Shown: one piece after another, positions 725 through 43,109 of the stretch
Numbering within the stretch: the first letter of the stretch is position 1
Layout of the letters: every line of letters starts with the position of its first letter
Assembly (NCBI GenBank): GCA_008632985.1
Contig: QPGO01000328.1
Coordinates: 1-53,784, forward strand
From: Psammoneis japonica
Lineage: Eukaryota
Direction of reading: 5' to 3'
Length of the DNA: 53,784 nt
The notes under the pieces: model-generated
Seen by the model: the letters and a program-made list of their open reading frames with translations, nothing else
The model's database searches: none
Told to the model about the DNA's origin: nothing
Translations under genes and position numbers: made by a program

Positions 725-1098
725 TGTTTGTTTTTCTTGAAAAGACATGTTTGTTTTTGTCAAAAAGACATGTTTGTTTTCCTTGAAACAACATGTTTGT
801 TTTCCTTCCTTGAAATGACGTGTTTGTTTTCCTTGAAAAGACATGTTTGTTTTCTTTGAAACAACATGTTTGTTTTCCTTGAAATGACATGTTTGTTTTC
901 CTTGAAATGACATGTTTGTTTTCCTTGAAAAGACATGTTTGTTTTCTTTGAAAAGACATGTTTGTTTTCCTTGAAAAGACATGTTTGTTTTCCTTGAAAA
1001 GACATGTTTTCTTTCCTTGAAATGACATGTTTGTTTTCCTTGAAAAGACATGTTTGTTTTTCTTAAAAAAACATGATTGTTTTCCTTGAAAAGACATG
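725..1098. repeat. 23-bp tandem satellite, array 1 (consensus CTTGAAAAGACATGTTTGTTTTC)
   Basis: About 16 head-to-tail units with a 23-bp period (e.g. TTGAAAAGAC at 971 and 994). Confidence 0.95.
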
Positions 1099-1123
1099 CA
1101 TCTGGGACGCCAACAATCTGGGT
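1099..1123 (+). repeat. Left terminal inverted repeat
   Basis: CATCTGGGACGCCAACAATCTGGGT; the reverse complement of 14933-14957 is CATCTGGGACACCAACAATCCAGGT. Confidence 0.85.
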
Positions 1124-1391
1124 CTGACTGTCTGCCATGATCTGGGTGTTTCTTGACTTTAACGCCAGATCATTGTCAACTTACAAGCCAATTCTCTCCT
1201 CAAATGTGATGTGAGAACTGTGTGAGTTTATGGGCTTCTAAAACCCAAATTGCTTCTCACTTTTAAGTGAGATCATTCCTTTCACATGATGCTGACCTGC
1301 GCCCCAATTAACATTTGGGGTTTCTCGTTCTTTTAACACAAATGTTGCTGCTTGCAATCCACCCTCCTTTTCCACCAACTCATCCTACATT

Positions 1392-2780
1392 TTATCTCTT
1401 TGCCATGTCGTTTTCAAATCCAAGTTCCCAATTGCCACACGTTGTTGCATCTAAACCGTGTCGCAGAATGCATTTTTTAATTTTCGCTTGTCCAGATTTT
1501 GTTGTTTGTTTCAAATTACGGTTGCGCACCAGTTTGGTTGGTGGCCATTGCGGCATTTGCTGCCGCTCCATTGCCTGCAGCCACTGCCTGCAATGGCAGG
1601 TCCTCTCCCATTGGCGCCGCCCATCCTTCCTCTCTCTCCTTTCTTTTTTCCTCTCTTTCGCATTTCTTGTTTTCCTCCTGAGACAAGTTTGTCTTCTCTT
1701 GCCTTCCATTCTTGAACCATGCACCAAATCCCTGGTTGTTCTCTCTGTCTTTCACCACCCACCGACATGGATCATTGTGCTTCTTGATCCCCTCCTTGCT
1801 CCATCCTTGGCTCCTCTTTGCCGATTCCCCCATCGCCTGTGCTGTGTGCTTTGCAGGAGCAGCGTCTTTCACAGATGGCTTTCTTCTCCTTGCAACATTT
1901 TCTTCCTTTTCCAATTTCTCTGCCGTGCCCTTCACCTTGTTGCAGCAGCTCAAGTGCACTGGCAGAGCAAACGCCTCTGACAAAACCGAAAGCCATTCCT
2001 GAAGCATGTCGGTTGTGCTTCTGCCAAACTGCACTTGTCCCACCACCGTCGGCACCACAGTTTCCAAGAACCACGCGCATGTGTCCTTGTCATTTCTTCC
2101 CTTTGTCAAATCTTTGCAAGCCACCAGCGATCCCTCTAAAGCAGCAACTGCACAGATGAAAGCAAAGGAAGAGACACCCATCCCGTCAGACAATCGCCTC
2201 CAACACAATCGCCGGCACGCACACATCTGCTCACCTGCCATTCTCCTCCCAATGTTGTCCTGCACATCATTCCTCTTTCAGTTGAGTTTGGTCCTGAGCA
2301 CCTCTTTGCATTCTTCCCAGAACTTCTCCGGTGAAGACGCCATGCTCCTTGACTCCTGCAGAACCAATTTCATGCAATCTCCTCCCACGGCGAGTTCATG
2401 ATTGAAGATTGCAAACTTGCGACATGGCCAAACACTCTCATTGATGACCTTTGTCAACATCGATGCTGTCAATTTCTTGCCCACCGCCGGCGCACGATCC
2501 AACACAAGACATCCCTCTGTGGGAGTCACCACCGAACTTGAATCGCCACCTGCATGCTGGAATCTGTTCAATTCCCCATGTTCATTTCTTTGTGCATGCA
2601 ACAAGGCCGCGTGGTGACTTCATGCAACACCACACAGATCAATCCAATGATTGTGTTGGTTCATCAGCAACTCTTTGTCATGTCCTTTCTCAATCTCACT
2701 TGCCGCTGGAAGTTGCACTTCCTCCCTCCGTTGCTCCTGTGAGAACCGCATCCTCCATTTTTTTTTACCTTCTCCATGGC
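1392..2780 (-). pseudogene. Transposon accessory ORF remnant, function unknown
   Basis: ORFs 2278..2604 and 1516..2265 read as one interrupted protein (EKFWEECKEVLRTKLN; AWFLETVVPTVVG...EWLSVLSEAFAL) followed by a charged tail. It resembles diatom DNA-transposon accessory proteins as I recall them. Confidence 0.4.
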
Positions 2781-3277
2781 TTCCTGTTGTTTGGAACTTC
2801 CGTCCTTTCCTGTTGCTTCATGAAAGGCAAGTTGCAAAATGAGCGCACTTTGCATGTGATTTTCTTGGTTTTGTTGTTGCTCGCGTGTCCTCTCTTGATT
2901 CAAACAGGTCTTTGTGTCATTTTTGAGTGCTCATTCCCAACCCCATGTTTGCACCTCCATTGATGTTTCACTGTTTTGAATTGTGCACCTTTGTCAGCCA
3001 ATCCAATGCACCAATGAAGATTGCAATGTCATTTGAATCAATGCCAAACAATGTGCCACATCTCTTTGCATTGATGCATGCATTGCGCCTCCTTCATGAT
3101 GCAACATCTGCTTCATTTGGCATGTCAAGTCATGTCAAACCTCCCATTTGTTGTCCCTGTCTCAATGGGTCATTCTCTCTGCTTCCCCGACACCACATCT
3201 CTCCAGTTGCTCTCTCTGTTGCCCAAATTATCCAGCCCACTTTAGTGTCCACTGAAGTGTGTTGTTGTCACTGAGAT

Positions 3278-4066
3278 GTGGTTGTCGTGAGTCATTCCCG
3301 TCATGGGAACGCATGTTCCCTCTGTTGCAATCACATGCCGCCAATTGATGATCAAATTGGTTGTTTTGCTGGTGGTGGTGTGGAATCACATGGTGGTGCG
3401 GCAAGCTTTGCCTTCTCCACCGAGGTCATTTGTAACCCCGCTCTCTTTGCGGCACAAATTCGAAGCCGTTTTAATTTCCTCGACATTGGTGGTGGTGTTG
3501 GCGGTTTTGCGATTGCCTGTCGTCTGTTTGTTCCTGCCTGCAATGCCCACAGCATCAAGTTCCACCGTCCCCGTCATGATCTGGGCTCTCAGTGGTGTGA
3601 TGCCATGTGGCACAACAACGCCAGTCGCTTTCCCACCCTGATCAATCAGGACTTCCTCTCCGAAGACGATGCTGTGCATCGGTTGCACCGTCTGAACAAC
3701 TTAAAGATTTTCTTCAACAACTGCAATGGGCAAATGCTTTTTGACAACAATGCAACACAGAACCAACTTGAGGAGATGCTGTCCAACAAGTGTCCTGAAG
3801 GTGCCATTGTCATTTCACTGGACGTGATGTTTTGTGTTTGTGTGCACAAATGGAGGCATGAATCATTCTTTGTTCCTGCCCATCCAGATGATCTGTCGTG
3901 GGGAGGCGGTGTCGATGGGCACCCACTTCACAAGTGCGCCAAGAAAAGAGACGATGCCATGGAGACAAGGCATTCCACTGGGAACGACCTGGGGTCTGAC
4001 ATCAAATGTGAATTCAAGCCTGCCAAAAGTGGGCAACTTTGCAATTCCCCTTTGTTTGTGATGTGA
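3278..4066 (+). pseudogene. DOT1-like (H3K79) class I SAM-dependent methyltransferase, transposon cargo
   Basis: DOT1-like motifs occur in order: ESHG (SYGE), FLDIGGGVG (FxDLGSGVG), QDFL (GDFL), IFFNN (IFVNN), PEGAIVISL (KEGxRIVS), LSWGG..PLH (VSWT..YY). There is no Tyr in 262 aa. Confidence 0.7.
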
Positions 4067-4191
4067 CTTTCGTCTGTGCAAGCAATGCATTGTCAATTGG
4101 CCCTTCACACAAACCTGCTTTTTACCTGCATCAACTTGCTGCTTCACCAGTTTTGCATTCCAACACCTGCTTGTTCACATGCTTGCCATGT

Positions 4192-5141
4192 TCACATGCT
4201 TGCCATGTCAAAATTGTGGACTGGACATGCCATGTTCCTTCGATCCGAGTTCGTTTTGTCAGGCAAAGCTTGGCGCGACATTCTTGCATCAAAAACAAAT
4301 GCAGTGCCTGCTTCTCCAGCCAGTGATTGTTTTTCCAAACCCAACCTGACCAAGTGTCTTTCACGTTCCTTCTCATTCAATGTCACCTCACAACCATCCG
4401 GCCATGTCTCAGCTGTGCCATTGTGCTCCGTTGCGTTGTTGAGGAACAGAAACATGGTGAAAATTTTGTCACCAGGTGACAATTTGGTTTCCACGCAATC
4501 GCAATGAATTTCCCCTTTGACCAGAAGTTTGATCTTGAACGTGAAGCAGGAGCATTTGCTGCTGTGTGTCGGGACATCTTTCTGCTTGAATCACCTGCCA
4601 GGGGAAAGCCAGGAATTAACTCCAACATTTTCTCTGCCAACCCAATGCCTTCCGCCTTGTCCTTTTTGTTGATGGCAAACTCGCCGACAAAACGGTGTCC
4701 TTCCTTCTCTCCCTCACCACTTGGTGCCTTGTTTGCCAGTGTTGTTGTCTTGTTGAGCAGGGGTGGTGGTGTTTTGAATTTTTGCAAGTGGCCTTTTTTT
4801 CTTTCCTGGTGCTCTTTTTCTTTGGACCCCGCCGTCTCACTCTTGACGACATGAGATTTCATTTCGCCCGGGTGTGTCAGCAACTTGCCATGTTTCTGGC
4901 ATGACGTTGTTGGCCAACGGGCAAATTTCTGGCATCCGTTCACAGAACACTTCTGCGCCATTCTCTGAAAATGCCTGTTCTGCCAAATCAAATGGTGCCT
5001 GGTCTTTTTCTTTAAGTGGAGCAGACCCAATCCAGCGAAAGTCTGCACCCATTGCTTTCCAACAAAAACGGCTTTCTTGCTAAATGTGTGTTGCCAACGG
5101 CAGTCCATCTGTTGTGTGCACCACAGATGTTTTTTTCGCAA
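4192..5141 (-). pseudogene. Zn-finger + 2OG-Fe(II) dioxygenase (PhyH-like DSBH fold), transposon cargo, frameshift near 4515
   Basis: The frame of ORF 4192..4494 extended upstream reads KGEIHCDC (HxD). It continues TMFLFLNNATEHNGTAETWP and GEAGTAFVFDARMSRQALPDKTNSDR (distal His position reads Arg; 2OG-binding Arg present). The N-terminal frame has a CSVNGCQKFARWPTTSCQKHG C-x4-C..C-x2-HG finger. Confidence 0.6.
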
Positions 5142-5228
5142 ACAGCCCCATGTGATGTGTTGACAATGGCAGTCTGTCTGTCGGGTGCACCACAGATGTT
5201 TTTTTCGTAAACAGTCCCATGGGATGTG
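5091..5228. repeat. 69-bp tandem duplication
   Basis: CACAGATGTTTTTTTCG occurs at 5122 and 5191. The copies differ at GCAAAC vs GTAAAC. Confidence 0.75.
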
Positions 5229-5954
5229 ATCTTTGTCGATCCTGTTTGCTGCATGATCTCATCAAATGTGTCATCCCAGCCATCTCAAAAGCATGGAAAA
5301 CAATTTTGTTGCTCACAATCCTGTCAGTGATCTTGTGAGATGTTTTCACATCCCCACAGCGGCAGACACAAAGGAAAAGCTGCCATCCACTGCACATTCT
5401 GCACCACAAACAAACTCATTTGGAATTTTGCACATGACAGACAATTGCAAATGACAGGCATTGCTTTTTTGGCAATGCACCTGTCTGTCAACAGAGCAAT
5501 TTGGCATCACTTTTTTGTTGTTGCAACCATGTGTTGACAAAGCAATTTGGCATCACTTTTCCATTGTCAAACACATCTGATGACAGAAGAATTTGGCATC
5601 AGTTTTTTGTTGACACGTGTGTCTGTCAACACATGCCTTTGGTGCCACTTTTTTATTTTTGCACTTGACGCTGGCCTGTGCAGCATCGTGACATGAAGTG
5701 CATCTCCCGCAGCAAACCACATTCTCCCGAATCTTGTCCAAGTTGCTGATCAACTCATGTTGAGCAGCAAACAGATGACGTTTGGGTGACTCTGTCTCTT
5801 GTCCTCTGTGTCCTTGTCATTCCCTTTGCAAAACAACAACCTCAAAATGATCCCACCCCAAAGAATGCTGCCCAATCCCTTGCCTGTTAGGCCACGTTGC
5901 TGAAATGGAACCGACAAATCTCTTTTTCGCCTGACACATCGTACTTCTCTCCCA

Positions 5955-8900
5955 ATGACATTCCACCTGACTCAACCTGCAGTGTTGACCAATGATCCAT
6001 CTGGCCGTTGTCCCCCACCAATGCATCTGGCCCCGTTTGGCATAGAAAACAGCCTTGACACCAAATTGAGGCCACATTGTTCTCCCACACTTTGGGCAAA
6101 TGAACGCGGTCATGTTCATTTGTCACTCAAAAAAAATGGTTTGACAGATCACTTGATCCATGGCATCATGCTGATGATGTTTGATGCAAAAATCTTTACA
6201 TTCGAGAGCAGTGGGAAGAGCAATGTGTGCAACCCAAACCACCTTGGTGAATTTGCAAAATGGCCAGTGCACCCAAGCCACATTAGATTGGCTTTGAAGG
6301 AAGCCACCCTGCCAGAGCTGGCTCGACGAAAGAAAAAAAGGCATGCAAAAAAATCATTGATGCTTGCTGCTTCCAAAACAAAAAATGCCAAAGATCCACA
6401 GCGGCGCAGGTGAGGGATTGCATCTTGTGCACCACCTCCAATTCCCATCTGTTTCTCACCTGACAAAATCATTGTTGATGTTTCCTAGAATGACACCCAA
6501 GCTGAAGGTCCAACAATTGCAACTGGTGTCGGCTCCTGTGTGGAAAGTGCAAATGACAATGACAATGACACAACATGGGTGGAGACGGATGTCATGGATG
6601 ACAAACAACAAATTTGGGCTGTTGCAGACAGCGAAGAAGATTTGCTGGCAAGGGATTTCATCTGTTGTGCTGCTTCCCTTTCCCATCTGTTCCCCACCTG
6701 ACCAAGTGCATGTTGATGTCTCCCAGAATGACAGCAATGCTCAAAGTCAAACAATCACCACCGGCATCGACTCTGTTGAGGAGGCTGCCCATGACAACGA
6801 CAATGACTCTACATGGGTGGAGACAGATGACATGGTTGACGAACATCCAATTGATGCAAGCAGATTGTTGGCAATTGGCATGGAAGCTGGTGGTGATTTA
6901 AATGGAGTGACAAAGATGCGCGCGACAGCATTCAAACTCAACGCCTGCTGGATCTTGGATGTGACGTTTGCACAATTGACAAGAGGATGTGCTGCACTTC
7001 CTCGCCAAAGCACACAGAGTGCGATGTTCTAAGTTTGCACAGATCAGCACAATGGAAGAGATTGTCCAAAGAGACAAAGTTCGATCACATTTGCTTTGAC
7101 TGCATGTGTTCAAACCCGGCCTGTCTCTTGGCTTCAGCTCCAAAGGGACCTTTTTTCTAAGACACACTCAGGGAGCTGCTGCGGTCGCTGACGGATGATG
7201 GGATGTTCTTCCTGCCTGCACACAATCTTGCATTTTCCAAGTTTTGGATGGAATGGAAGAAACAACGCATGTCGGAAGTGCACCCAATTCGCTTCTTGCG
7301 TGAAGAAGAGCAAGCACACAACGAGGTCCCCATCCTTCGAGATGAGGCACAAGCAGACATCTCTGCCTGCAGAAAGTTTTGTGCAAGGGAAGAATGCATT
7401 GAGGATTGTGAGTTAAAACATGAAGAAGTGAAATGGCTCACAGCAACAGATGAAGCTGCATTGGCGCATTTTCCAGATTTCGGGGGTCCAGTCAAACACA
7501 TTGGATCAACTAGAAGAAGAAAGGACCCTTGCCATGCACCAGTTTTTGCCGGTGACAACTGTGTGTTTTGTCCAACATGCAGTCTCAAGAGACACGAGCG
7601 TTTTCGGCGATGCCCATGTTGCAGGCCAGCTCCCATCCGGAATGCTGTGCAGTTTGATCTTGACTACAAAGACGTGCCTGACTCAGCATGTGGGACAAAA
7701 AACAGCAAGAAAACCAGGGAAGAATCTCTCCTCTAGCAAATCAAACAGTGCAACGCCAATCTTGTCAGCTGTTGGAGGCAGAAGGACCAACCACATGGGG
7801 TTGGTGGCAAGAACTGGGGTTTGTTGTTAACACGTCCCAAAAGCATTGGCAAAAATGCGAACAATGAAAGAGAACTCAAGTGAAAATTCTGCCTGAAACA
7901 ACCTCACCGGAAGTCCAACAAGCTGTCTGACACGTTCGACAACAACATTCCATTCATTGAAAAACCAGGCAGGGCGGGAACGAGGTGTTCCCTTGTCATC
8001 CACTTCAAGCTGCGTGCAACAGCACATGGTGCAATGGGTCCGAATGCTTCAAAGCAAATGTGTCGGCACCTGCAAAGCAAGGCAGAGATTCTACATTTGA
8101 GTGCTGACCACCCGCACAGGGCAAGCGATCCAACTCGTCCATTCATTTTGAACCAAGACACAATGGAGGGAATTGCCGACAATGCCGTCTTCAGGTCGTG
8201 CAAGTTTGACAAAAGAATTCTTGGATTGGGTTTGTCAATGCAGCTCAGAGCCATTGTTGAACAGGGACTCAGCAGTGGGTTGGCAAGAGAGTTTTTACTT
8301 GCAGCAAAGTTTGACCATTCATTTTGAGGGACTGTTGCCAAAGATTTTGATGTGAGTGGAGTGATTGCTCAAGGTTGGAGCCACCATGGTGGGTCAGGTG
8401 TTGCAAGGCCTGGAATGACAGAAAAGGAAAAGGACCTCTCTCCGAGATGCAGACAGTGGGTTTTGCAACTGACCGTGATTTTGGTTCACATTGTGTGCCA
8501 AAAAGCTTTGCAGGGAACACCAAGGTCTTCCCAGGGAGAAATGTTGGAGGAAAGACGAAGGTTGTCTGAGAAATGCCAAGTCTGGTTGGGTTGCCCAGAA
8601 TGATTGCGAGGTGTGTTAAAGCTTGATGAGGCAGGATCTCACATTGCCGGTTTTGCTTTCACACACTTCGACAGGGAAAATGAGTGGGAATTCCTCTTGG
8701 ATGACATTGGCAACGGTGTTGTCTTCATTGATGATTGGCGGGATTGCAACATTGGCAAAGATTTGGTGGACAAGCTGAAAAGGCATTTGGCCCCCATCAC
8801 CAACACCACGTTCAACCATCTGTCGTACAACCGAGAGATTGTCGGAATTCAGTTACGAAAGCTGCTGTTCAAGATGGATTGTGAACATGCAAATGCCCTG

Positions 8901-10117
8901 TTCGAACAACTGGAATCCCTGACAGACAGCTTCAACCTTTCAACTGTGGAGAACAAAGATGACATTCAGTGCGCGACCCAGCATGTCAGGGGTCACCTGC
9001 AGCGATTTGACAGTGGCGACCACAAAGGCATGTTGGGATTGCTTGTTGATGAAGGCAAAGACAGAGACCTCCTCCTGGGATTGATCACCCACAGCTGGTT
9101 CAATTTCACATTCCACCATGAGGGGTGCGTTGCTTTTCACCACGGAGACAAACTGGCAGCATTTGTGGGTGTGGAGCTCAATGGTGCACACCTCTTGTTG
9201 CTCTTGTTGCATTGAGAGAATCTGCAAAACCCAAAAACAAAGAATCAATGAAAACTTTGTTGCAGAAAAATGAGACGGGATTGTTGCACCACCGACTGGT
9301 GTCAATGATGAAGCAATTGAAGAACAATGGTGATGTGAGCGGAATGACGTGTTCGACGTTACAGAGATTTCAACACATGGATCCTTCCTTGACCAACATC
9401 AAGGAGATGCGAATCTGCTTTGTGTTCATTTCCAGTCAATTCGATGGTCTGCGGGCAAAGGACACTGATGGAAGTCACGAATCTGCCAGGGAACTTTTGT
9501 TTTGTCGCGAAGCCAGGAAGAACAAACTGCCAGAGCAGTGGCTGCCAAGCACAAGGTTGGCCGATGTGCGCGGGGCTTTGACGATCCAATCGGCTTCCGT
9601 CATGGGACAAATCCCCCCTCAAAATGCAGCAGTGGTGTGCATGTCCAAGGGTGATTCTGGATTTTATCTGTTTGTCAACATGTGTGTTGTTGGGAAAGAA
9701 GCACATGAGAGAGGCGAACGGATCTCCTCATTGAAGGCAAGGGAAGTTGTTCAAAATGCAATTGAAGTTGCAAGAAAAAATGGTGGAAGACCAACTTGGG
9801 CCAAATGTGACCAACTGGGCTGCAGGGAATGTCGATCGATGAACAACAAGTTTTGCAAGGATCCACACTGCCTCGTGTCAAGCGATCGGGGTGTGTCACC
9901 CGTTCGCTCTGTGGAACATTCGACTGAGTCGACAAGCGGTCTGTGGCCCAATGAATCGGAGCACAGGGTTGAACATTTCATTTGTGATCAATGGCATGAT
10001 TTGTCAACTCATGTCGATGTTGGCTCTTGTGTCAAGTCAAAGCATGACTTGACAAAGCAGAAGGGTTTGCTCCAATTCCGAGAATCGAAACTGAGCGGGA
10101 CCAACCAGTGCTTTTAG
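5955..10117 (+). pseudogene. Degenerate plus-strand cargo ORF(s), unknown function, with Cys-rich (RING-like and Zn-finger-like) segments
   Basis: A chain of protein-like ORFs (7203..7736, 8034..8327, 8604..9215, 9125..10117) includes CVFCPTC...RCPCCR and KCDQLGCREC..KFCKDPHC. Confidence 0.35.
6440..6850. repeat. ~238-bp diverged tandem duplication
   Basis: CCCATCTGTT..CACCTGAC..GTTGATGT..AGAATGAC starts at 6444 and at 6682. The copies differ at CCTAGAATG vs CCCAGAATG. Confidence 0.7.
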
Positions 10118-10298
10118 ATGTGTCAGCATTCCATTGCTCTTCAATGTGCTGACTGACAGAAGTGGCAACATTGCTCTTCAATGCTTTTGCTGACAGAAGG
10201 AGCAACAATGAGTGGTGCCAACAGATGCTGTTGGACAGGTCAACACACCTTTTGCAGCAAACTCATTACGAATGTTTCCTTTTTCCCAAGGTGCATTG

Positions 10299-13200
10299 TC
10301 ATTTCTCCTTGTCTTGCTTCCTGCGTTTGTCTGGGTGAAGCTGGATCACTTTGTTGGACAGGAAACAATTCGGCCAGTCATTGTGTCTGTCTGTGACAAA
10401 CAACATTGAGCTCAAGTGTCCCAATGCTTCAACATTGTCTTCATTGCAGTTGTCAGGAACAAGGACAGAGAAACCACCCGCTGCCATTGCGTCTCTGCCA
10501 GCACACTGAAATTTTGGGATCATCTGAGACTCTCTGCCACGACCAACAATTGTTGTTTCAAGTTCCCAGTGCTCAACCACACCGTTGGAAGACTTGTCAC
10601 GCAACGTCTTTGTCTGTTTCTTGCATGACTGTCCTGTGGCAAGCGGCGTTGTTCCGTCATCAGCCAACACAAAACCATGGAGCACAAATGGGTGCCTTTT
10701 TTTCTGACTGGTTCCCTCTTCATTCAAGACCCTGGGTGTGTTGCACCACAACCCATTGTTGTTGCAATTGGGGTGTCCACACATTAAAATCCCTTTCTCT
10801 GGTGTGGCAAACTCCGAGCAAACAACTGCTTCATCACACTTGACGGAAAGTTCCTCCGTTGGCGACAACAAAAACTCAAGCAGGGTGGAGTCCAATTCTG
10901 CAGTTTCCGGGATGACACGGATCTTGTTGCTGCCTGAACACTGACAGCAAGTTCATGTGGTTCTGTTCACAACAAACAAGGGGTGCATCAATTTTTCTTC
11001 AGAGGAATTTACGCTCGCCTGTCCAACCGTGGAAGGGATGAGAAGGCTGTGTGCCTTCTCAAGAACTGCCATGTCATGCAGACGCACAATGAGTTGGTCC
11101 AAGAAATTGTCTGCACCCAGTGCAACCTGGCAAGTTTTTGCCGGAAGCTCAGCACAGAACTTCAGGTGACTCTCTCCAATCATGGCAGAGAAATTTGCAA
11201 TCTGGCCACAAAGGAAAGAGTCGACAACGAGATGCAGCACAGAGTGGAACTTGGCAGTCCAGAACAAACGAGTGTTCCTTGCACGACGAAGGCATGCTTT
11301 TGTCTTGAACATGAGCAAGACGACTCGGCACTTGAAATCCACCTTTCCTGTTTTTCCACAGAGTCCCTTTCCATGCAGACAAAACAAATGGAAAAGCAGC
11401 GCATGATGCAACAAGTCCAACAATTCATCGACTCCACAATCAACGGATTTTTCGGCTGTCGTTTCGTCATCTGCCATCTTCATAAAAGCTTGAGGAAGTT
11501 TGTTTTCTATTTCCGCACAGATGACAGTGCTTGGCAGTTTTGACTTGGTGAGCAGATGGTGCCGTCCATCCGCACACCTTGCAAAGTTGCCCCAATCATC
11601 TGCCGATTCAACAACAAGACCATGTGGTCCGGGTGTCGACAATTGTTCAGGTGAAGTCTCAACAGCCCGTTGTTTCCATCTCAATGATTTTGTTTCGTCC
11701 CATGCAATCTTCTGGCACAACAAAAAGCGATCGTTGTCTGGTTGCTTGGAAAATGGTTCCCAAAATTCAGAAAGGCCGTGACGATGCATCTGTTGCATCA
11801 CACAGTTTTGGTGATGAAGATCGGATGGGCCGCAGGCAACATCAGACCATGTCTCCTCTTTAGGAAGTGCAGCCGGCACATTCTCATCAACCTGGCTTGT
11901 GTTTGTTGTGCTGGTTTGTTCATTGGATGGTTCAACGGGCTCAGTGTCCTCATCTTGGGTTCACTTTCTGACGATTTGGTCAATTGTTCATCTTGTTGCT
12001 TCTTTCCTTTAAAGCCATCAGCCGTCTTTTTCTTTTTGCTGTCAAAGGATGGATCGCACCTTTTTTCCAGCAGTTTTCTACCAGCATGTGTGTGACCAAT
12101 GATTGCAAGTGCAAGAAGCTTTCCCATCTTTTTGTCACATGCAAGTTGACTGAGTGTGGAAAGTCCCCCATCAATTTGAATTCACGGGCAGTCACGTCTC
12201 TGACCTGGACGACAATGGGATGTGCAGAATGACTCAGATGCAATCCGGTCGCATTCCTCTTTCTGTTTGGTGGACATCTCTCCAATGATTGCCTCCATCA
12301 TTTGAGGGACAATGCCAGCCTCCAATGCATGCATCATGTCAGCAACGGTCATGCCAAATGCACCACATGGGTTGTCGCCCATGTCAAGTGGAAAGTGAGC
12401 ATTGTCCACTGCGTGCTGTCCAAACACTTTTCTCAAAATTTTGGAGCATGCAGTCATTCGGCGAATGAGGGATGAAGCCAGCTCAGTCTCAGCCTTTTTT
12501 TTGATGTCATTGCACGATGTTTCCGGGAAACGCTTTTGACATGCTGGTGCCAACGGCTGTTGTCATCCTCTGGATCTGGACCCAATGCAGCTGCAGCGAG
12601 CAACTCTGTGAAAGCTTGGTTGCAAAATTGGCAGACATGGCTCTTCCACAAATGCGTTCTTGATTGAGGATGTTCCCCAACAGGGAGTTGCAATGCATCA
12701 CAGCTCTGACATGGCGGCATTGAGTGCCTGTTGTTGCACGAACAATGGGTGGATTCGCCTGGCAATGAAGCAGACCATGGAGAGCCTCCTTGAGAATGCG
12801 GCGACAGTTGGCAACAACAAGGCACCCAAGCTTGTCTTTCTTGTCTTTCTTGTCCAAATTGGGTGTGAATCCAAGTGGACGCCAACAACGACAGTCACGG
12901 CATGCTTCCTCTTGAATCATGGTGAGTGAGCGCATTGCAGGCTCCATCCCGTGAGGATTGACCGCACCAACTCCGGTCTTGTCCGAGTGATTGACAAGGT
13001 GAATGTGAAAATCTGATGCCGTTTCCTTGGTGTTGGAGCAACGTTGTTGCCACTCGCCGTCACCCATGTCTTGACTTTGAGTGGACAATTGCCAGTCACC
13101 AGGACAATCCGGGAATGACATCTCAACACCGTCAGCCTGGCCAGCACTGGGATCCAAATCGCCGTCAGTGGGGGGTGGCACACAAGGTGACCAGACATCA

Positions 13201-14514
13201 TTTGGATTGACCTGCAACTTGGAAAGATCACGGAACACTGGCTTGGTGAAGAGATCCTGCAAGGTCTCGGTGAAACTGCAAACCGGAAAAGGTGGGGAGC
13301 GATGACATTTGGGTCCGTCCTTCTGTTGCTGTGTTGGATTGTTGCATTCTAGCATCACAGCAGCAGTGCGGGGGAGAGGAACATTGGGAAATGACCCCAG
13401 GAGTTGCTTCATCGCCACGGCGGTCGTGATGGGTGGCTTTGTCAAATCCAGTCTTTTTTCTGCATGCTCTTCATGCAAAATTCTCACCACTTTGTCAATG
13501 AAGTCAATTGCAACACCTGGCCGACAACACAAATGCAGCAAACGCACCATGGGTGCAATGCTGGGTGAGCAGACTGGAGGCACATCAAAATCCTCATCGG
13601 GTGCAACATCACGCGGTGGGCCAAGAGGGTTGTGTTGATCGAGGGAGGAAACAGGATCTTCTGTTGGACGGGAAATTGAGGGGGGGGCCACAACTGCCAT
13701 CGCGATGGTCGGCTCCAATGAACTCAGGAACATCCACAGGACTGTCCTCTCCAAGGGCGGACACACCATCATCTGCAAACAAAACAAATCGGCGGGCATT
13801 TTGGGAGGCTGCGCTGGCGGCAGCAGCATTGGCGGCTGAACGCAATCGACCAGAGCATCTGACGGAGGGTGGGCGCAGTCCACTTCTGGCAGAGGGAGGA
13901 CAAGCTGGAGAAGAATTGTCCGTTGGTTTGGGAGGAGATGGAGCTGGATTCCAAAGGACTTCGGGGAGGGGAGGAGGGGGTTCGTCGTCAGAGAAACCAA
14001 ACCCAGCAGGATCATCATGGTCATCCAGTGATTCATCGTCTGGAGGGGGAAGTGCATTGGTGGCAGCAGAAGATGCAGCATGCAGGCGAAGGGACATTTC
14101 CTCCTTTTCACGGCAGGGCAAGCACTTCTGTAGATGAAGGGCGACGTTGGAAAAGGGGACACGGCAATGGGGGCATTTGGGTTTGTTGGTGTTGGATCCA
14201 AGGGAGCCGACAGAGGCGGAATCCAGAGGATGAGAGGAAAGAGGTGTTCTGCTGGATGAAGAAGACAATTGGGCTGCATGGCACAGCTGTGTCAATGGGG
14301 GATGGAGACCAGATGCTGTGGTGCAGGGCCGAGACAGGTGACGCTGCACGTTGTTTTCAGAGTCAAGTCCATGTTGTCCACAATGAGGACAACCAAAAGA
14401 CTTGGTGGAAATGGCAGAACGGAGGCAGTCAGTTGTGATGTGCCTGCTGAGGCCACATTCGGAAAAGAAACCGGTTTGTTTGCACCATGGACAAACAAGA
14501 CCATCAGATGACAT
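10299..14514 (-). pseudogene. Plavaka-family transposase with N-terminal C2H2-like zinc fingers, fragmented
   Basis: ATG at 14514 (MSSDGLVCPWC) is followed by three CxxC..H fingers. Core motifs are NHSDKTGVG..EP..SLT..WRPLGFTP, DNAHFPLDMGDNPCGAFG..DMMHALEAG and WTAKFH..LH...CGQIANF..GESHLK..PAKTCQ. Confidence 0.75.
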
Positions 14515-14932
14515 GGCCGATGCACACAGATGAAGGAGTTGAGAAGAGAATCGAAAGGAAACAGCGGGTGCAGCAACAATCACTTGGGGACACAGTGAGG
14601 GCAGAAACACAGAGACACAACATGCAGATGGATGGGAAGGAAGGATGGAGTGGGCAGGGAGAGAAAATTGAGAAGACAATTAGAGTCTAGATTGATGGAC
14701 ACAGGCAGCAATTTTGATCCAGAAAGTTGATCAACACACAATCCAGAAACAAAAACAGAATTAAACACGCACACAAGGCTTGTCGGATGGGGGAGCAAAT
14801 GGTTGAATTGAGGAACACAGATGTTTGTTGTTGAACATTTCAGAAAAGCTGACTTGACAAATCAGCACGATCTTGGATTGAAGGGAGAAAATGTCGGGTT
14901 TTGTTTCAAGAAATCTTGACGGCCAGTGCGAC

Positions 14933-14957
14933 ACCTGGATTGTTGGTGTCCCAGATG
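14933..14957 (-). repeat. Right terminal inverted repeat
   Basis: The reverse complement matches 1099-1123 at 22/25. It is followed by the ATG duplication and the resumed satellite. Confidence 0.85.
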
Positions 14958-15584
14958 ATGTTTGTTTTCCCAAAAAAGACATGTTTGTTTTCTTTGAAAC
15001 AACATGTTTGTTTTTCCTTAAAAGAACATGTTTGTTTTCCTTGAAACAACATGTTTGTTTTTGTTGAAACGACGTGTTTCTTTTCCTTGAAATGACACGC
15101 TTCTTTTCCTTGAAAAGACATGTTTGTTTTTCTTAAAAACACATGTTTGTTTTCCTTGAAATGACATGTTTGTTTCCTTGAAAACACATGTTTGTTTTCC
15201 TTGAAACAACATGTTTGTTTTCCTTGAAAAGACATGTTTGTTTTCCCAAAAAAGACATGTTTGTTTTCTTTGAAACAACATGTTTGTTTTTCCTTAAAAG
15301 AACATGTTTGTTTTCCTTGAAAGAACATGTTTGTTTTCCTTGAAATGACATGTTTGTTTTCCTTGCAACAACTTGTTTGTTTTCCTTGCAACAACTCATT
15401 TGTTTTCCTTGCAACAACTTGCTCTTCGATTTCTTTGAAAGAACATGTTTGTTTTCCTTGAAACAACATGTTTGTTTTCCTTGAAATGACCTGGTTGTTT
15501 TCCTTGAAACAACATGTTTGTTTTCTTTGAAACAACATGTTTGTTTTTCTTGAAATGACATGTTTGGTTTCACTGAAATGACAT
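14958..15584. repeat. 23-bp tandem satellite, array 2 (continuation of array 1)
   Basis: Same unit and orientation as 725-1098, about 27 units. Confidence 0.95.
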
Positions 15585-15649
15585 CACAAGAAAGACAGCG
15601 CAGAACTTTCTCCACACTGCCCAGGCTCTTGTTCCTGGTTTCTGCTGCT

Positions 15650-17911
15650 CAATGTTGTTCAAAGTGCCGGCGCCACTCGGGAGCAAAGGATCTCCTGCCA
15701 TCTTTGCAGCATCCAATGGCAAGGCATCTGCCAGAGCAACATCCGACATGGGCAACACCTGCAGGTGCAAATGACAACAATTGGTCCGTCGGACCTCGCA
15801 CTGAGAAAAGAGTTGGGGCTGGAGTGCAGCATCCATGATGCACTGGTTGTTGTCTCATTGGAGAGGAAGGGCTCCAGAGTGTGTCAGGCAAACTTTCCCT
15901 TGAATTCTGCGCAAGAGTGCACTGACGGAAGCAAACCAACATGATTCCATGTGCGGGAGAACAGCATCTGCATCCCACAAGAAGCCCCCGCCTGTCCCCA
16001 AGTTCAGTTGGACACATGAGACTGCAATGTGCAGCAATTTGTGGGGTTGGTCCTCTCCCAGATGAAGATGTGTGACACCTCTGGAATGCTTGAGCAGCAT
16101 CTGCAATTGAGCAACTCCTTGTTTGATGTCTGGCAATCGAAAACCGCCACAGCCAAGAGCTTGTGGACCACACAAGATGAGTTGTTTTGTGCTTCAGTTG
16201 CACCCACATTTGGCAAATGTGACCCTCGTTGCTTTCTGTTGAGCGGCAAGCAACTCTTCAGGGAGAAAGGTCAAGTCAGTGAGAACACAGGTCATTGAGG
16301 AGAGATGACATGCATGGCAGCATCTCTGTGTTTCCGCATGATCAAGTGGACAAGATCGCTCTTGTGTTGGAGTTTCTTCAACTGAGTTTTCTGGGCACCA
16401 ATTGGAGCCAAGCAGTGTCCAAGGGTTTTGTGCAGAGCACAAGCTGAGAGAGTTGAGTGCCAGAGTGGGGACTTGGGCCTGTCCGCAGAGAAAATTTTGC
16501 CGCCAAGGTTTTTTCATGGTGAGGGCGAATGCATGGCTCTCCGCACTCAGTGAAATCCCACTCAACAGTGTGGAAAGAACACTTTGGCAGCTCAAGTTCA
16601 TGCCCAGCTGCACCCAGCAAATCACACCAGAGTTGATTGTCCTGTTGCAAAAAAAAGGACAGATCAAATGCACAAGGTTGAGGACTTGCTCGGAAGTCAT
16701 TGACTTGTTTGGACGCATCATCTGCACATCCTCGATCAAAGACTTGGATGCAAAATTGGCCGTCAGGGGTTTCAAAATGAGCTCCAATCACTCTGGCATC
16801 AAAAATGTCAAAAAAAATGGCTGCAGAGGGTGTTCCAATGCCACAGGGAATTTCCGCCACCTTGCCCTGTGCCGCACAGAGGCAAATCTTCTGTGTGGGA
16901 GCAACTCAGCTGGGCTGAGCCCAACAGGGTTTGCAGCCAGTGCCTGGCATGATGCAGAGTGCCCATGTTGACTTCAACAACTTGCAAGTGCACGCCGTTG
17001 CTCCAAGAGCAAAGTTCGACCAGCGTGGGAATGTTTCTGTCAAAGCAAGAGGTGCAATCATCATCGCTCATCAGCATTGTCTTTTGAGAAGCACACGACA
17101 TTTCTGACATCAAGTTCTCAAGAAACATGAAAGTCTGGGCAGAAAAAAATGAGTGGCATCCACAAATGCCGGGATTGCACATCCAACGGTGCTCCATTTG
17201 CTGTGCCAATTCTTGCCATTTTGCACTCGTGATGATTTGATGGTCTGCTTTGCACACGTGTGAGACCCGCAGTTGATGGATTTTGTTGTTCCCTTGTTCT
17301 TTAAAGATCGTCATGTTGACAATGTCTTTCCAATGGCTGTGCGAGCATCCCCACTTCAAAGCACAGTCAACGAGGTGAAGCCGTGTCGCAAATGAGGTTT
17401 GCTGTGCCTGGCCCAGGTGCAGTTTGGTTGGAGTCAGATTTCCTTGAGCGTCTTGATCTTTGGAGTGTGAATGAGGGGCATGCAGAGCCTTCCAATGGCC
17501 AAGATGTGGTCCTGATTTCAGCAAGGCAGATGTTGATTCAGGCCATGTCTTCAATTTAGACAACAAAGTGGTGGGAGACAAAGAATTGCTCACAGCTGGA
17601 GGTGTGCATTGACGGAGGTGCTGGACAAGCAACGAGGCAGCAAGATTCAATTGACTGGTGTCATGTTCCCCATTCAACATCAGCTCTGCCATGATGGTGT
17701 TCCCTTCATGCCCCAAGTCCACGGACAGGGGAGGGACAGCAGGAGGTGCACCTTTGGCCTGTCCAAAATGATGTTGACTCTGTGTCTGAAGTGCTGCTGC
17801 TGCATCCTCTGGAGTGTCTGCTGTCATCCAATGTTTGCATGTCTTGGATTGTCTTGAGGATTGGCTGGCACTTGAATGGTCTTGATGCTTGAATCTGCTT
17901 TCTCCTTGCAA
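15650..17911 (-). mobile_element. Non-LTR retrotransposon (diatom LINE, Ambal-like) reverse transcriptase remnant
   Basis: Motifs SGPHLGHWKAL, WKDIVNMTIFKEQGNNKIHQLRVSHVCKADH, DCTSCFDR, LCGTGQGGGNS, GCADD (YADD), QLWCDLL..GHELELPKC and CGPQALGCGGF..QG..LKH. ORF 16808..17911 has no Tyr in 367 aa. The clade name is tentative. Confidence 0.8.
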
Positions 17912-17939
17912 GCGTCAATCTTTCGGAGCACTCTCTTTG

Positions 17940-18600
17940 TCTCTTCTGCTTCCGCACATTGCAGTTTGCAGTGGAGACTGCTGTTGGATGAAAACACGCC
18001 AAGATCCAGCAGCCGGTTTGTGTGGCTGTTCTTCAGTCTTCCAGCCTTCCATGCTTGCTTTTGCGTGTCCAACCAATGTCCAAGTCTCTCTCCATTTTCA
18101 ATGTGAAATGGGGCACTTTTCAGCTTCTCTTGTGCAAAACGAAAAAATTTGAGAAGAGAAAACACAGTTTCTCAATGCTCAGCCAGAATGTCCCAATTGG
18201 CTCAGGCCTTTTTCAGTTGTTCCTGTTGAGAAGCGTCAATTTTCCTTTTCCTTGTGGCACCCCGTTGGTCATTTGGCCATTTTCCAAAGTTCTCCCCATC
18301 CTCTTTGTGGCCCCTTGGCATGTTGCAATGTCCCTCCCATTTTGTGAATTGCTTGAGAAGAGAGGGCATTGTGCCCCATTGATTTTCCCACAAGAGCCAC
18401 TCAACACTGGCCTCCTCAAGTTTTTCTTCTTTTTCAATGCCGAGCTTGCTGAGCTTGTGTTTTGTGGCCATTGGTTGTCCAACCAAATTCCAAGAGCAAA
18501 GCCATCCTCAGCACATTTGCTGGGAACATTGCATCTGCCTTCTCTCTCCAAGCAAACCAAGAGCAGGCTGCAAGCACAACACGGCGCTAATTTCAGCAAC
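17940..18600 (-). pseudogene. Helicase-associated (HA) domain repeat protein remnant
   Basis: Three HA-like units: EREGRCNVP..EDGFALGIWLDNQ; WEGHCNMPRGHKEDGENFGKWPNDQR; ENGERLGHWLDTQKQAWKAGRL..RLLDLG. Confidence 0.75.
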
Positions 18601-18702
18601 ACAGCATCATGGAAATGTGCTCTTTGTGCCAGAGGCATGTGTTTGTGAACAACATGGTTCGATGGCAGCACTGCCAACAGATGCTCTCTTTTTTCTTTTT
18701 TG

Positions 18703-19087
18703 CATGTTTGTTTTCCTTGAAATGACATGTTTGTTTTCCTTGAAAGAACATGTCAGTTTTCCTTGAAACAACACGTTTGTTTTCCTTGAAACGGCGCGTT
18801 TGTTTTCCTTGAAAAGACATGTTTGTTTTCCTTGAAACGACACGTTTGTTTTCCTTGAAAGGACATGTTTGTTTTCCTTGAAACAACGTGTTTGTTTTCC
18901 TTGAAAAACATGTTTGTTTTCCTTGAAAAAACATGTTTGTTTTCCTTCAAAGGACATGTTTGTTTTCCTTGAAAAGACATGTTTGTTTTCCTTCAAAGGA
19001 CATGTTTGTTTTCCTTGAAAAGACGTGTTTGTTTTCCTTGAAAGAACTTGCATGTTTGTTTTCCTTGAAAGAACTTGCATGTTTTCC
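18703..19087. repeat. 23-bp tandem satellite, array 3
   Basis: Same unit and orientation as arrays 1 and 2, about 16 units. Confidence 0.95.
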
Positions 19088-19544
19088 TCCCCAGGATGAC
19101 AAAATGTGTTGTCCATTGTGGATGAACAGAGTGACTGTGAGGCTCACACAATGGGCACAGATGGGAAGCTGAGCACTCCACGAGTGCCGTGGTGACAGGT
19201 CCACGCAGTCAACCAGCAAATGGGAGGCCACCCCATGCTGTTTTGTCTGAATGAGCACATGCTCTGGGCTCAATGCCCCACACTGCTGTGTCCAACACCT
19301 GTTGCACATGTTGGGAACTGATGTGTTTGCAAGTGTGACGCCATTTCCACCACAGCAATTCTCATTGTTCTCATTTTGGAGCAAATTTTCTGCATGCATG
19401 TGCAGAACCCAGCACCCTTTCTGCTGCTGACACCCATGTGGTTCTGCACAGCAACGAACAATTGCTTGTGTCATTTGTTTCATGCCCGCAAAATGGCTCA
19501 ACAACAGATCTTGGCTCTGACAAAGCGAGCAAATGCAGGTCATT

Positions 19545-20340
19545 GATTGAGGGTGCCCGCCCTTGGCTGAGGGTGCCCACCCTTGATTGAGGGCACACCA
19601 TGATCAAATTTGTGGCGGTGCATGTTTTGAGATTTGAGCATGCCGCAATCTTCATCCAAGGGAGGTGTTTTGTCTTTGCAGGTGTTTGAATCAAGATTCA
19701 GAGGACAGAGGGCGGGCTGCCAACCTGACACATGCGCTGGCAATTGTTTGAAAGTTCTGTGCATCCCATGGAGTCTGAGCTGAAACAAAATCTTGGCAAC
19801 AGCAAGGCACTTGAACAAAGAGTGTGCTCCTGTTCTCCACACATTTTGGCCCTCAAATGAGGGTGCCCACCCTCAATTGAGGGTGCTCACCCTTGACTGA
19901 GGGTGCCCACCCTCAATTGAGGGCACACCATGATCAAACCAAGGGCGACCCATGATTTGAGATTTGAGCGTGCCACAATCTGCATCAGAGGGAGGTGTTT
20001 TGTCTTTGCATCTGTTTGAATCAAGATTTGTGGGATGGGCTGCCAACCTGACATGCACGGCAATTGTTGGAAAGTTCCTTGCATCGCATGGAGTCTGAGC
20101 TGAAACAAAATCTTGGCAACAGCAAGGCACTTGAACAAAGAGTGTGCTCCTGTTCTCCGCACATTTTTGCCCTCAAATGAGGGTGCTCACCCTCATTTGA
20201 GGGTGCTCACCCTTGACCGAGTGTGCCTGCCCTTGATTGAGGGCATGCCATGATCAAAAAAAGGGCGGCGCATGATTTGAGATTTTGGTGTGCCATGATC
20301 TGTGTCCGAGGGAGGTGTTTTGTCTTTGCATCTGTTTCAG
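19545..20340. repeat. ~320-330-bp tandem repeat (about 2.5 copies) with nested 20-bp quasi-palindromes
   Basis: GGGCAyrCCATGATCAAA occurs at 19591, 19921 and 20241. Each is preceded by several TGAGGGTGCCCACCCTCAAT-like units. Confidence 0.85.
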
Positions 20341-29400: not shown

Positions 29401-29605
29401 TCCGCAACTTTCAACTTCAACATGCTGAGCTGAAACTGCCGCCGCCGTCACCCGTGTGCGCAAGTTGCCAAGCAGTCACCCCTGTGGCAGGGGAGCTGTG
29501 TGTGTGTGCATGGTTGTGCGCGCACGGCTTCGCCGTGTGTTGAGTTTTAATGTCAACATCCACACGAATGTGTGTGTTCCACAAGCAAAAATTCCTGTTC
29601 CACAG

Positions 29606-31922: not shown

Positions 31923-33463
31923 ATGAAGTTGTTGTTTGGTGCAACGACGCTATTGTTGTTGCTTTTAGAACCAGCGACAGGTTTTGGCATTGTATCAACG
32001 ACGGGGCAGTGTCGTCACGGCCATGCTGTTTCGTCCTTGGTGGTATTGTCGGAGAGTAGCAGTGGTGGCAGTGCTACTGCAAGCGCAGACGCCTTCTCTG
32101 CCTTTGCCGATAGCCTTGAAGAAGAAGAAGAACCCGAAGGAGAGATGTTTGGTCAAGAAGAAAAAGTAGAGGCTTCGTGGCAAGCTAGTTTGGATGAGAT
32201 TTTAGATCCAACCACATCTCTTGCTCGACGACAAATCCTTCTTAATGATCTCTTGAGCGCAAATGAAGAAATTCGCGATAGCGTACAAGCTGCACTCCGA
32301 GATGGAAAGGTGGGTATTGCATTCTCGTTGCGGCTGCACTGTGTTGATGGGATCCGGTGCCGGAAGTATTTCCTTGTCATCAATGTTTTTCTTCGTTTAT
32401 CTGCTTACCGTTTCCCTCCCGTCGCCTGTTTCTACTTTTCTTCACGTTCATTTTATAGATCGATTCTCTCCTCACACCGAAAAGCAAGAAACTCCAAGAC
32501 GGAACTCGAGCCGTGGCTCGTCAGTTGACGAATGATATTTTACCGGGAATCGCGGCGGCCACTCAGAAATCGCAGCAACCCCCGTCCGATTTACCAACAT
32601 TGCTTCCGAAGGTGGGATCCAGTATTTTCAATGCAATCTCCAATCAAGCAAGGCGCAATCTCGAACTGCTCCAAGGAGATTTGCAGGACCCTTCTCGCAT
32701 TCCAAAGCGACTCACCCGGCAGATTGAAAGCGTGGGAATCGAAGCGAAGAACATCTTTTCGGAAACACCGCAAGGTTTGGTGGGTCCGGCTTATAAAGTG
32801 GTACAAGAGGGAGAGGGCTATGAGATTCGTGAATACGAAGGATACGTGGTGGCCTCAACCAACATGGCAAAGGTGGATGAGCCTTACTCCGTAGACGATT
32901 TGGCAAGTGGAGGAGCCGCCTTCAATACGCTTGCTGCCTATCTGTTTGGAGCCAATGATGAGGGCAAGACCATGGCCATGACGACGCCGGTGGCCACAAC
33001 ATCATTGGGTGAAATGCGCTTTTATCTCCGAAACGACAGTGAGAGCGACGAGAAGGGTTTCCCGGATCCTTTGCAAGAAGATGCTAATGGCTTTTATGAA
33101 AAGGGTGCCGTCAAGATTGTCGATGTACCTCCGGCCCGACTGGCTGTAGCGCGATTCACAGGATTTGTCACCAAGGGTGAAGTATGCCGTCAAAAGGATG
33201 CGCTCCTTTCACGATTGGAGTTGGATGGCATAGAGATTGATGTCCCACATGGAGCTGTTGTGCCGCATGTTGTGTTCCAGTACAATCCGCCCTATACTAT
33301 TCCAATTGTTCGGCGTAACGAAATTGCAGTGCCCGTACGAAGCGATGGAGACGAGTCTGCCAACCTGAAAACCGAATGGCAAGCTACGGATGGCAATGAA
33401 GATGCTGCTACTCCCGACGTAGAGGCTGGAGGCATTGTGGAACCATCCAGTGATGTCGAGTGA
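31923..33463 (+). CDS. SOUL heme-binding family protein, probably plastid-targeted; join(31923..32309,32459..33463)
   Basis: Signal peptide ends ATG-F. A GT..AG intron at 32310-32458 joins the two frames. SOUL motifs are YEIREY, AFNTLAAYLFGAN, MAMTTPV, MRFYL and QYNPPYTIPIVRRNEIAVPV. Confidence 0.9.
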
Positions 33464-43000: not shown

Positions 43001-43109
43001 TGCACTCTGTGGCACTTGAGATGTTTTTTGCTTGCTCGCATGCTTTCTTTCTGTGTTTTCTTTGAGCCACAGGGGTGGAACTGGGTGCTCCACATCACAC
43101 ACACTTTGC

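Follow-up and report, generated by a model that had tools for sequence, protein, structure and literature searches.

An old, inactivated 13.9-kb DNA transposon within a satellite array of Psammoneis japonica: a probable divergent Plavaka element with accessory genes

The 53,784-nucleotide contig QPGO01000328.1 of Psammoneis japonica (assembly GCA_008632985.1, positions 1 to 53,784, forward strand), hereafter called the window, contains an element of 13,859 bp, which extends from the first base of its left terminal inverted repeat (TIR) to the last base of its right TIR (1099..14957) and interrupts an array of a 23-bp satellite. The evidence at its two ends supports its reading as a DNA transposon, bounded by TIRs and flanked by a target-site duplication of 3 bp. 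We consider it probable that the element is an old, inactivated copy of a large cut-and-paste transposon, which belongs to a divergent branch of Plavaka, carries accessory genes at the level of the family and has multiplied as a family in the genome. Plavaka is one of the members of the CMCT clade, together with CACTA/EnSpm, Mirage, Chapaev and Transib.

The left TIR (25 nt, 1099..1123, plus strand), which begins CATCTGGG, and the right TIR (14933..14957, minus strand) are complementary at 22 of 25 positions (88%) and form the top-ranked inverted repeat in the first 17 kb; among the best 25 of the 128 pairs, the remaining 24 are 70–86% complementary, and none of them lies at a sequence boundary. 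By simple arithmetic, the probability of at least 22/25 complementarity at one fixed register is 6e-11. The 20-nt TIR core, with up to three mismatches allowed, is found at just two sites in the 53.8-kb window, i.e., the two TIRs, and these two matches were reproduced in none of 100 shuffles. Outside the arms lies target DNA, namely the left and right halves of the split satellite array (725..1098 and 14958..15584, as delimited by Tandem Repeats Finder), and the satellite stops and resumes precisely at the TIR arms, each of which is bordered by an ATG (1096..1098 on the left, 14958..14960 on the right). When the element is excised in silico with one ATG kept, the 23-nt segment across the junction shows a single mismatch to the satellite consensus and the satellite phase is equal on both sides, whereas keeping both ATGs gives six mismatches and a phase shift, and keeping neither gives seven mismatches and a phase shift. 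Only the version with a single ATG restores both the satellite unit and its phase, and the 3-bp duplication is therefore real. A preliminary description of this DNA, made from the sequence, had placed the TIRs and an ATG duplication to the base within a satellite unit, which the arms, the satellite break and the in silico excision all confirm.

The same description had attributed two of the three TIR mismatches to decay at a TG/CA pair; this was right, and the reading extends to the third, as all three mismatches fall at CG/CA or TG/CA sites between the arms. Because every mismatch sits at such a site, the two arms may once have been identical and may now differ through CpG decay alone. Near the left end, the heptamer ATCTGGG occurs three times within 1100–1146; over the whole window it occurs nine times versus 6.4 expected, which is not above chance, and the left-end cluster alone is notable. 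The stretch 706–724 resembles the right TIR in no more than a 10-mer, which we put down to chance. No further fragments of the element were found elsewhere in the window by DNA or protein comparison; a tblastn match between the translated tandem-array region at 5438–5665 and a site at ~36.3 kb (E 2.6e-4, 28% over 69 residues) was taken as chance. A third array of the same satellite is present at 18703–19088, and the three arrays lie within 19 kb in one orientation.

The right part of the element is occupied by a transposase pseudogene on the minus strand (10302..14514), which comprises an N-terminal C2H2-like zinc finger, beginning at the ATG at 14514, and a DDE core. Homology to transposases spans 10.3–13.7 kb, is colinear with the relatives and is seen nowhere else in the window; with the N-terminal zinc-finger open reading frame (ORF) that reaches the ATG, it agrees with the extent of about 4.2 kb assigned to the gene at the outset. 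A search with a 395-residue piece (12510–13694, minus strand) among 1.8 billion representatives returned 167 relatives at E ≤ 1e-3, the best with E 2.9e-54 and 37% identity. Pfam screening covered the 150 listed of these 167 relatives, 103 of which match the Plavaka family PF18759 at E ≤ 0.01 (24/40, 63/85 and 16/25), and 20 of the first 40 reach its gathering score of 26.3 bits. No other transposase family, EnSpm-type included, is matched by any of the 150. Moreover, when the window piece and its seven closest relatives were aligned by hhalign, as one profile, with a profile of ten Plavaka proteins that are Pfam-positive and came from the same hit list as the window's relatives, the result was a probability of 100 and E 1e-127 over 870 columns. 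The Pfam counts and this profile comparison uphold the grouping with Plavaka-type proteins that had been proposed initially. We read the transposase as a member of a divergent Plavaka branch that the Pfam model, presumably built mainly on fungal sequences, would barely reach.

The nearest neighbour of the window in a quick tree (43 rows, unrooted) is the relative P0005, and the transposase of a metagenomic locus, L006, joins this pair next. The closest relatives (P0005–P0015) were found in metagenome assemblies of ENA, JGI and Logan; the contigs that carry them measure 1.2–9.7 kb, and several scarcely exceed the length of the ORF, as assembled transcripts would. A PDB sequence search with the transposase profile gave no match, and a homologue search with P0002 against longer proteins found none.

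This copy of the transposase gene is broken. A profile of eight full-length relatives maps to it in six pieces, in frames 1, 0, 2, 2, 1 and 1. The gene changes frame near 13680, 12640, 12500 and 11950, the change near 13680 being additional to those between the pieces and parting the N-terminal zinc-finger ORF from the transposase core, and in-frame TGA stops are found at 12182–12184 and 10953–10955. Of the catalytic residues, the first Asp ('HSDKTGV') and the Glu ('GESHLK') are retained, whereas the second position, D2, is Asn in the window ('LGNIL'); at least 90% of the 18 aligned sequences have Asp there, and the relatives read 'GDGL'. The DDE triad belongs to the family, and the copy in the window is without it. 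Neither the two stops nor the replacement of Asp by Asn is of the homopolymer kind that might be an assembly error. In addition, the CpG observed/expected ratio is 0.49 in the element versus 0.84–1.04 in four host ORFs, the TpG/CpA ratio in the element is 1.64, and the CpG ratio by thirds is 0.50, 0.47 and 0.53. Such depletion is the pattern expected of methylated DNA and would point to cytosine methylation of the element in this genome. The element that was first called complete is so in structure only; its transposase is broken and has lost one catalytic Asp, and the copy is mutationally dead.

The family to which this copy belongs is abundant, with many copies in the genome, as observed in the contigs of the public sequencing run X1, which derives from the same organism, shares 43% of the sampled words of 3001–13000 and may be the window's own source sample. 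At a minimum of 80% identity, 6,419 X1 contigs lie on the element and cover all 30 bins into which it was divided; 900 of them are at least 99% identical, 1,583 fall at 95–99%, 2,491 at 90–95% and 1,445 below 90%. The table of differences rests on 1–20 contigs per site (mostly 5–20), in cargo and transposase alike, and counts 311–376 differences per transition class versus 30–55 per transversion class, including many TG/CA swaps, which are a signature of CpG decay among the copies. Where the window has the TGA at 10953–10955, other copies have CGA (Arg), and at the window's frame-break sites 13680, 12494 and 11956 other copies differ by one base; therefore, less damaged transposase genes are probably present in the genome. 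One contig joins 7413 to 12421 and represents an internal-deletion derivative.

The summed depth of X1 contigs, which is not a copy number, reaches 34,174 and 54,419 in the two end bins, each of which includes about 49 bp of satellite, versus 1,100–4,900 inside the element, and the 23-bp satellite is therefore very abundant in the X1 genome. Contigs that join 1071, 1098 or 1099 to 14962–14979, and would thus skip the element, were considered as an empty site; they consist of satellite only and are no evidence of an empty allele, because the satellite forms at least three arrays in the window and the run is very rich in it. The loose ends of X1 contigs at 1096/1098 and 14958 likewise run on as satellite. 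Among the other runs, X2 gave no contigs on the studied stretch, and X3 gave satellite only. No RNA data set appeared among the runs listed as sharing the sequence.

About 9 kb of the element is not transposase, as had been noted from the start, and this portion is not simply private nested junk: X1 contigs cover all of its bins, and two of its ORFs recur beside related transposases in metagenome contigs, a scan of which with the relative P0011 yielded six loci (L001–L006). The larger of the two accessory genes, ORF2 (5904..10114, plus strand), is split into several broken frames and is convergent with the transposase, its start upstream of 6915 being only presumed. Locus L006 is a 14.2-kb metagenomic contig with an intact 1,302-residue transposase and a convergent ORF of 1,695 residues (P0159), to which two pieces of ORF2 are similar (8328–8600, E 9e-13; 8604–9212, E 2e-13). 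A profile built from P0159 and three relatives (four sequences) meets the plus strand of the window in six colinear pieces, i.e., 6915–7106 and 7176–7523 (both E about 1e-3), 7986–8315 (E 8e-17), 8370–8600 (E 7e-13), 8616–9200 (E 9e-17) and 9221–9850 (E 1e-19). Because the profile match is colinear and the same tail-to-tail layout is found in L006, ORF2 appears to be a family-level partner gene of the transposase.

With respect to its function, ORF2 and its relatives match no Pfam domain up to E 10 except a weak zinc ribbon, the TET/JBP family PF12851 being unmatched; the ORF2 profile has no PDB sequence match, and a search of viral contigs with the ORF2 alignment found none. In the four ORF2 relatives, H1190-x-D1192, H1351 and R1361 are invariant, with the Arg ten residues after the distal His, an arrangement that is compatible with an Fe(II)/2-oxoglutarate (2OG) oxygenase. 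The N-terminal part of ORF2 is repetitive (a 209-nt unit occurs twice, at 6406–6614 and 6644–6852, 75% alike), as are the N-terminal 480 residues of P0159, and this part is not conserved between the window and L006.

The smaller accessory gene is ORF3 (1519..2277, minus strand). In locus L003, an ORF next to the transposase resembles it at 27% identity (BLASTP E 4e-9; phmmer E 6e-5 against all window frames), and ORF3 is the sole match with E < 0.5 for the L003 ORF across all frames of the window. A possible upstream part of ORF3 lies in the same frame at 2281–2619, behind a TGA at 2278–2280; the L003 ORF similarly follows an in-frame ORF behind a single stop (1070–1072), across which a plausible GTAAGT...ACAG intron of ~78 nt can be drawn. 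An upstream exon common to ORF3 and L003 was considered; the BLASTP match (E 0.22) is not significant, and a common intron is unproven. Locus L006 also holds a 531-residue ORF (P0164, 11816–13408, plus strand), divergent from ORF2, which matches no Pfam family and by eye shows HxD...H at its C-terminal end, in a cupin-like manner. A three-gene synteny by way of P0164 was dropped, because P0164 is not similar to the oxygenase-like ORFs of the window.

These oxygenase-like ORFs lie, together with a methyltransferase-like one, in the left part of the element. The DOT1-like, methyltransferase-like ORF (2927..4063, plus strand; core 3275–4063, with an in-frame TGA at 3272–3274) shows a GxGxG-type motif, 'LDIGGGVGG', and its core has sub-threshold Pfam matches to Methyltransf_23 (E 0.084) and Methyltransf_2 (E 0.17), whereas DOT1 itself (PF08123) is unmatched up to E 10, also when the stop is read through as X. 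The language-model look-alikes of 3275–4063 are DOT1 clusters, which are rich in diatoms (score 0.96, 20/30). For this ORF, no homologues, no PDB sequence match and no tblastn match in phage genomes were found. The 2OG-Fe(II)-oxygenase-like ORF (4195..5258, minus strand) runs in two frames, 4386–5258 and then 4195–4590, and contains an HxD-like 'HCD'; its 4195–4590 part matches 2OG-FeII_Oxy_3 with E 0.031 and 15.6 bits versus a cut-off of 27, and has PhyH clusters as language-model look-alikes (score 0.94, 27/30). No PDB sequence match was found for 4386–5258, a single PDB match of the oxygenase-like ORF (E 0.27) was put down to chance, and tblastn found no match in phage genomes. The 'chromatin enzymes' that the preliminary description had seen in the cargo thus come down to sub-threshold Pfam matches and language-model look-alikes, and both ORFs are leads only. 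Between the oxygenase-like ORF and ORF2 lie tandem arrays with short palindromes (5087..5640), with a 69-bp unit at 5087–5228 and a 46-bp unit at 5457–5640. Neither an Rfam family nor a tRNA was found.

Among known systems, a close one is PlavakaB of Agaricomycotina fungi, which, according to the available portions of Kojima 2025 (PMC12730594), has duplications of 2–3 bp and the termini CATCA..TGATG. The element shares with PlavakaB a PF18759-related DDE transposase, short TIRs, CATC..GATG ends and a duplication of this length (3 bp here); its termini read CATCT..AGATG, such that four of the five terminal bases agree. It differs from PlavakaB, as far as the latter is described there, in a transposase branch below the Pfam threshold, a non-fungal host, a far larger size and several extra genes. 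In the same portions, some fungal Plavaka families are reported to have a single additional gene, the product of which is a DNA-modifying enzyme (TET/JBP); the Pfam scan did not detect this domain in the window element. Of the parallel once drawn with fungal Plavaka and KDZ elements, the KDZ part is not supported, as KDZ is, by the same text, unrelated to this transposase.

A second likeness is to the giant Plavaka elements of red algae, which in the part of the Bostrychia preprint accessible to us (10.1101/2025.02.11.637652) measure 17–19 kb and carry the accessory genes PAG1–3. Like the window element, they are very large and have about three accessory genes beside the transposase, their copies are mostly degenerate, and their families are highly amplified. 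According to the same text, a weak signal of a 2OG oxygenase is present in one of these accessory genes, with a phytanoyl-CoA-dioxygenase-type structure as its best match, which is also the type of the look-alikes of the window's oxygenase-like ORF, and inverted-repeat tandem arrays adjoin that gene just as palindromic arrays adjoin the oxygenase-like ORF here. In contrast, the PAG2 domains reported there (PF01555 and SET PF00856) are absent from the 52 element ORFs of at least 100 residues and, at E up to 1, from the 101 cargo ORFs of at least 60 residues; the window has the DOT1-like ORF instead. The Plavaka-flanked giant repeats of Amoebidium (10.1101/2024.01.08.574619), as presented in the available text, resemble the window element in being heavily methylated (here judged from CpG decay), multi-gene, intron-poor, Plavaka-associated and non-fungal, whereas they are tandem gene clusters of up to 50 kb with many tyrosine recombinases, none of which were seen in the element. 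EnSpm/CACTA elements share with it the 3-bp duplication, a CMCT-type DDE transposase, sub-terminal repeats of the terminal motif, a large size and a second large gene beside the transposase; however, their termini are CACTA or CAC..GTG versus CATC..GATG here, and none of the 150 relatives listed matches an EnSpm-type Pfam family. Red algae and fungi are thus already known to harbour giant Plavaka elements that carry accessory genes, and the window element adds another member.

Several observations count against the reading given above, and those that concern the transposase would suit an unnamed CMCT lineage of its own, standing as sister to Plavaka and resembling it in the shared DDE core only. 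A comparison of the Pfam Plavaka model with the translated 10.3–14.5 kb, which the preliminary description had named as a check, was negative: PF18759 gave no match up to E 10 with the eight minus-strand transposase pieces from 10.3–14.7 kb, and no transposase-family Pfam match was found among the 52 element ORFs of at least 100 residues. The closest relatives (P0005, P0006, P0008, P0010–P0015 and the transposases of L006 and L003) are likewise unmatched by PF18759. The well-supported clade of the window in the tree has 14 rows, 12 of which are without a Pfam match, and a position 'inside Plavaka' is not proven by this tree, the rows of which are only hits of the window's own search, with no EnSpm, Mirage, Chapaev or Transib outgroup. 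Furthermore, Plavaka transposases are described, in the portions of PMC12730594 at hand, as having two motifs in the interval from D2 to E, C(2)C and H(3–4)H; of these, the 'CRAC'-type C(2)C is retained in just 6 of the 18 aligned sequences, the window reads 'SQSC' there, and H(3–4)H was not placed with certainty. Nevertheless, a sister lineage seems to us quite unlikely. The 870 columns of homology with Pfam-positive Plavaka proteins reach far past the catalytic core, the Pfam-positive P0024 and the sub-threshold P0009 fall within the 17-row and 14-row clades of the tree, the termini (in four of five bases) and the duplication length agree with those given for PlavakaB in the accessible text, and the EnSpm-type family is missing from the Pfam matches of the listed relatives.

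Other points bear on the unity of the element rather than on its family. If it were composite, only ORF2 and the transposase (~5.9–14.5 kb) would be Plavaka-like, and the left 4–5 kb would be a different repeat or host DNA captured in one copy lineage, which would agree with the fall of X1 summed depth from ~3,200–4,900 over 1516–5243 to ~1,100–2,000 over 5244–12700. In addition, no relatives of the DOT1-like or oxygenase-like ORFs were found in loci L001–L006, the third ORF of L006 being unlike the latter. Two further points count against the preferred reading in general: the DOT1-like and oxygenase-like readings are without significant sequence support, and the synteny of ORF2, like that of ORF3, was seen in one independent locus each, the remaining four being too short to show it and containing little besides the transposase. 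However, as regards a composite, the left part includes ORF3, the homologue of which adjoins the L003 transposase directly, and the depth is raised at both ends, that over 1.5–5.2 kb and 13.6–14.6 kb being 2–3 times that of the middle, as for deletion derivatives that keep both ends, such as the one with the 7413-to-12421 junction; the uneven depth fits such derivatives and would also fit an independent repeat nested within that left part. No internal inverted-repeat pair among the best 25 of the 128 exceeds the 70–86% range to mark a nested insert, and the CpG depletion is uniform along the element. A composite origin is therefore regarded as unlikely, and the single large transposon is preferred. 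It is far more improbable, to the point of being nearly dismissible, that there is no transposon, i.e., that the inverted repeats arose by chance or that a 13.9-kb block was misassembled into the satellite. Satellite arrays are difficult to assemble, and the frame breaks at 13680 and 12494 sit in runs of eight to nine identical bases (G or T), such that two of the four breaks could be assembly errors or true slippage. It also counts against the main reading that no second copy with its own 3-bp duplication was seen between these TIRs among the X1 contigs, the contigs listed being about 260–320 bp long, too short for both ends. Against the absence of a transposon, arms of this quality at the break points have a chance of only about 6e-11, and with the duplication the phase of the satellite is exactly restored. 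The block contains a transposase gene that has the orientation, and the distance from a terminus, that would be expected, and its sequence recurs at high copy in data of an independent type.

On the preferred reading of a divergent Plavaka transposon, and by what is known of such families, the transposase of an active relative would bind the CATCTGGG... termini and excise the element, which would then reinsert across a 3-bp staggered cut, here at the ATG inside the 23-bp satellite. The element would carry along ORF2 (~1,300–1,700 residues), the small ORF3 and the DOT1-type- and 2OG/Fe(II)-oxygenase-looking ORFs beside its transposase. By analogy with the TET/JBP genes of fungi and the accessory genes of red algae, these accessory genes probably act on DNA or chromatin, where they may blunt silencing. 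The family would have multiplied to many copies, and the copy in the window would then have been worn by CpG-to-TpG decay and small indels; with this decay, it would be movable only if another copy supplies the transposase. A bolder proposal, which we put forward as speculative and rather doubtful, is that ORF2 represents a new family of Fe(II)/2-oxoglutarate-type dioxygenases and a fixed partner of a marine-protist Plavaka branch, which would form, with the DOT1-type methyltransferase and the PhyH-type oxygenase, a kit that rewrites marks on the element's own DNA or chromatin. If true, stramenopiles would have in this kit a counterpart of the TET/JBP genes that fungal transposons carry and of the accessory genes known from red algae.

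In the searchable literature, as far as its available portions go, Plavaka has been reported from fungi, from across Archaeplastida (PMC13519894) and from one animal relative; it has also been reported in Auxenochlorella. No description of Plavaka in a diatom or other stramenopile was found in the literature searched, which was judged partly by titles. A diatom host would agree with the intron-poor host genes, the weak helicase-associated-domain match and the diatom-rich DOT1 look-alike clusters, which are no proof of it, and an exact look-up of five presumed host proteins found none of them in the collection searched. If the host is a diatom, the element would extend the range of the Plavaka lineage, and a large size with accessory genes would be a recurring Plavaka trait instead of a red-algal oddity. 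For the annotation of repeats in protists, it offers ends resolved to the base, a transposase branch missed by the Pfam model and a conserved partner of 1,300–1,700 residues without a known domain. This ORF2 partner protein is, by analogy, a concrete candidate for an anti-silencing function, and its function is the point most worth following.

In the remainder of the window, the blocks 15600–18600, 24600–30600 and 39600–45600 have element-like CpG observed/expected ratios of 0.24–0.56 with a TpG/CpA excess and probably represent further methylated repeats, in which the ORFs of at least 140 residues show no Pfam domain except a weak match to a helicase-associated domain at 18216–18752. Host-like genes with CpG near expectation are found at 32459–33460, 35937–37280, 37599–39905 and 49948–51483; their products are a SOUL haem-binding protein, a Methyltransf_16 lysine methyltransferase, an FG-GAP repeat protein and an HMGL-like (isopropylmalate/homocitrate synthase-type) enzyme, and the host genes in the window are intron-poor. 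Further repeats lie at 19546–20337, 29868–30361, 52868–53465 and 43110–44490, with units of 320 bp, 181 bp and 102 bp and a duplication of ~700 bp at 94% identity.

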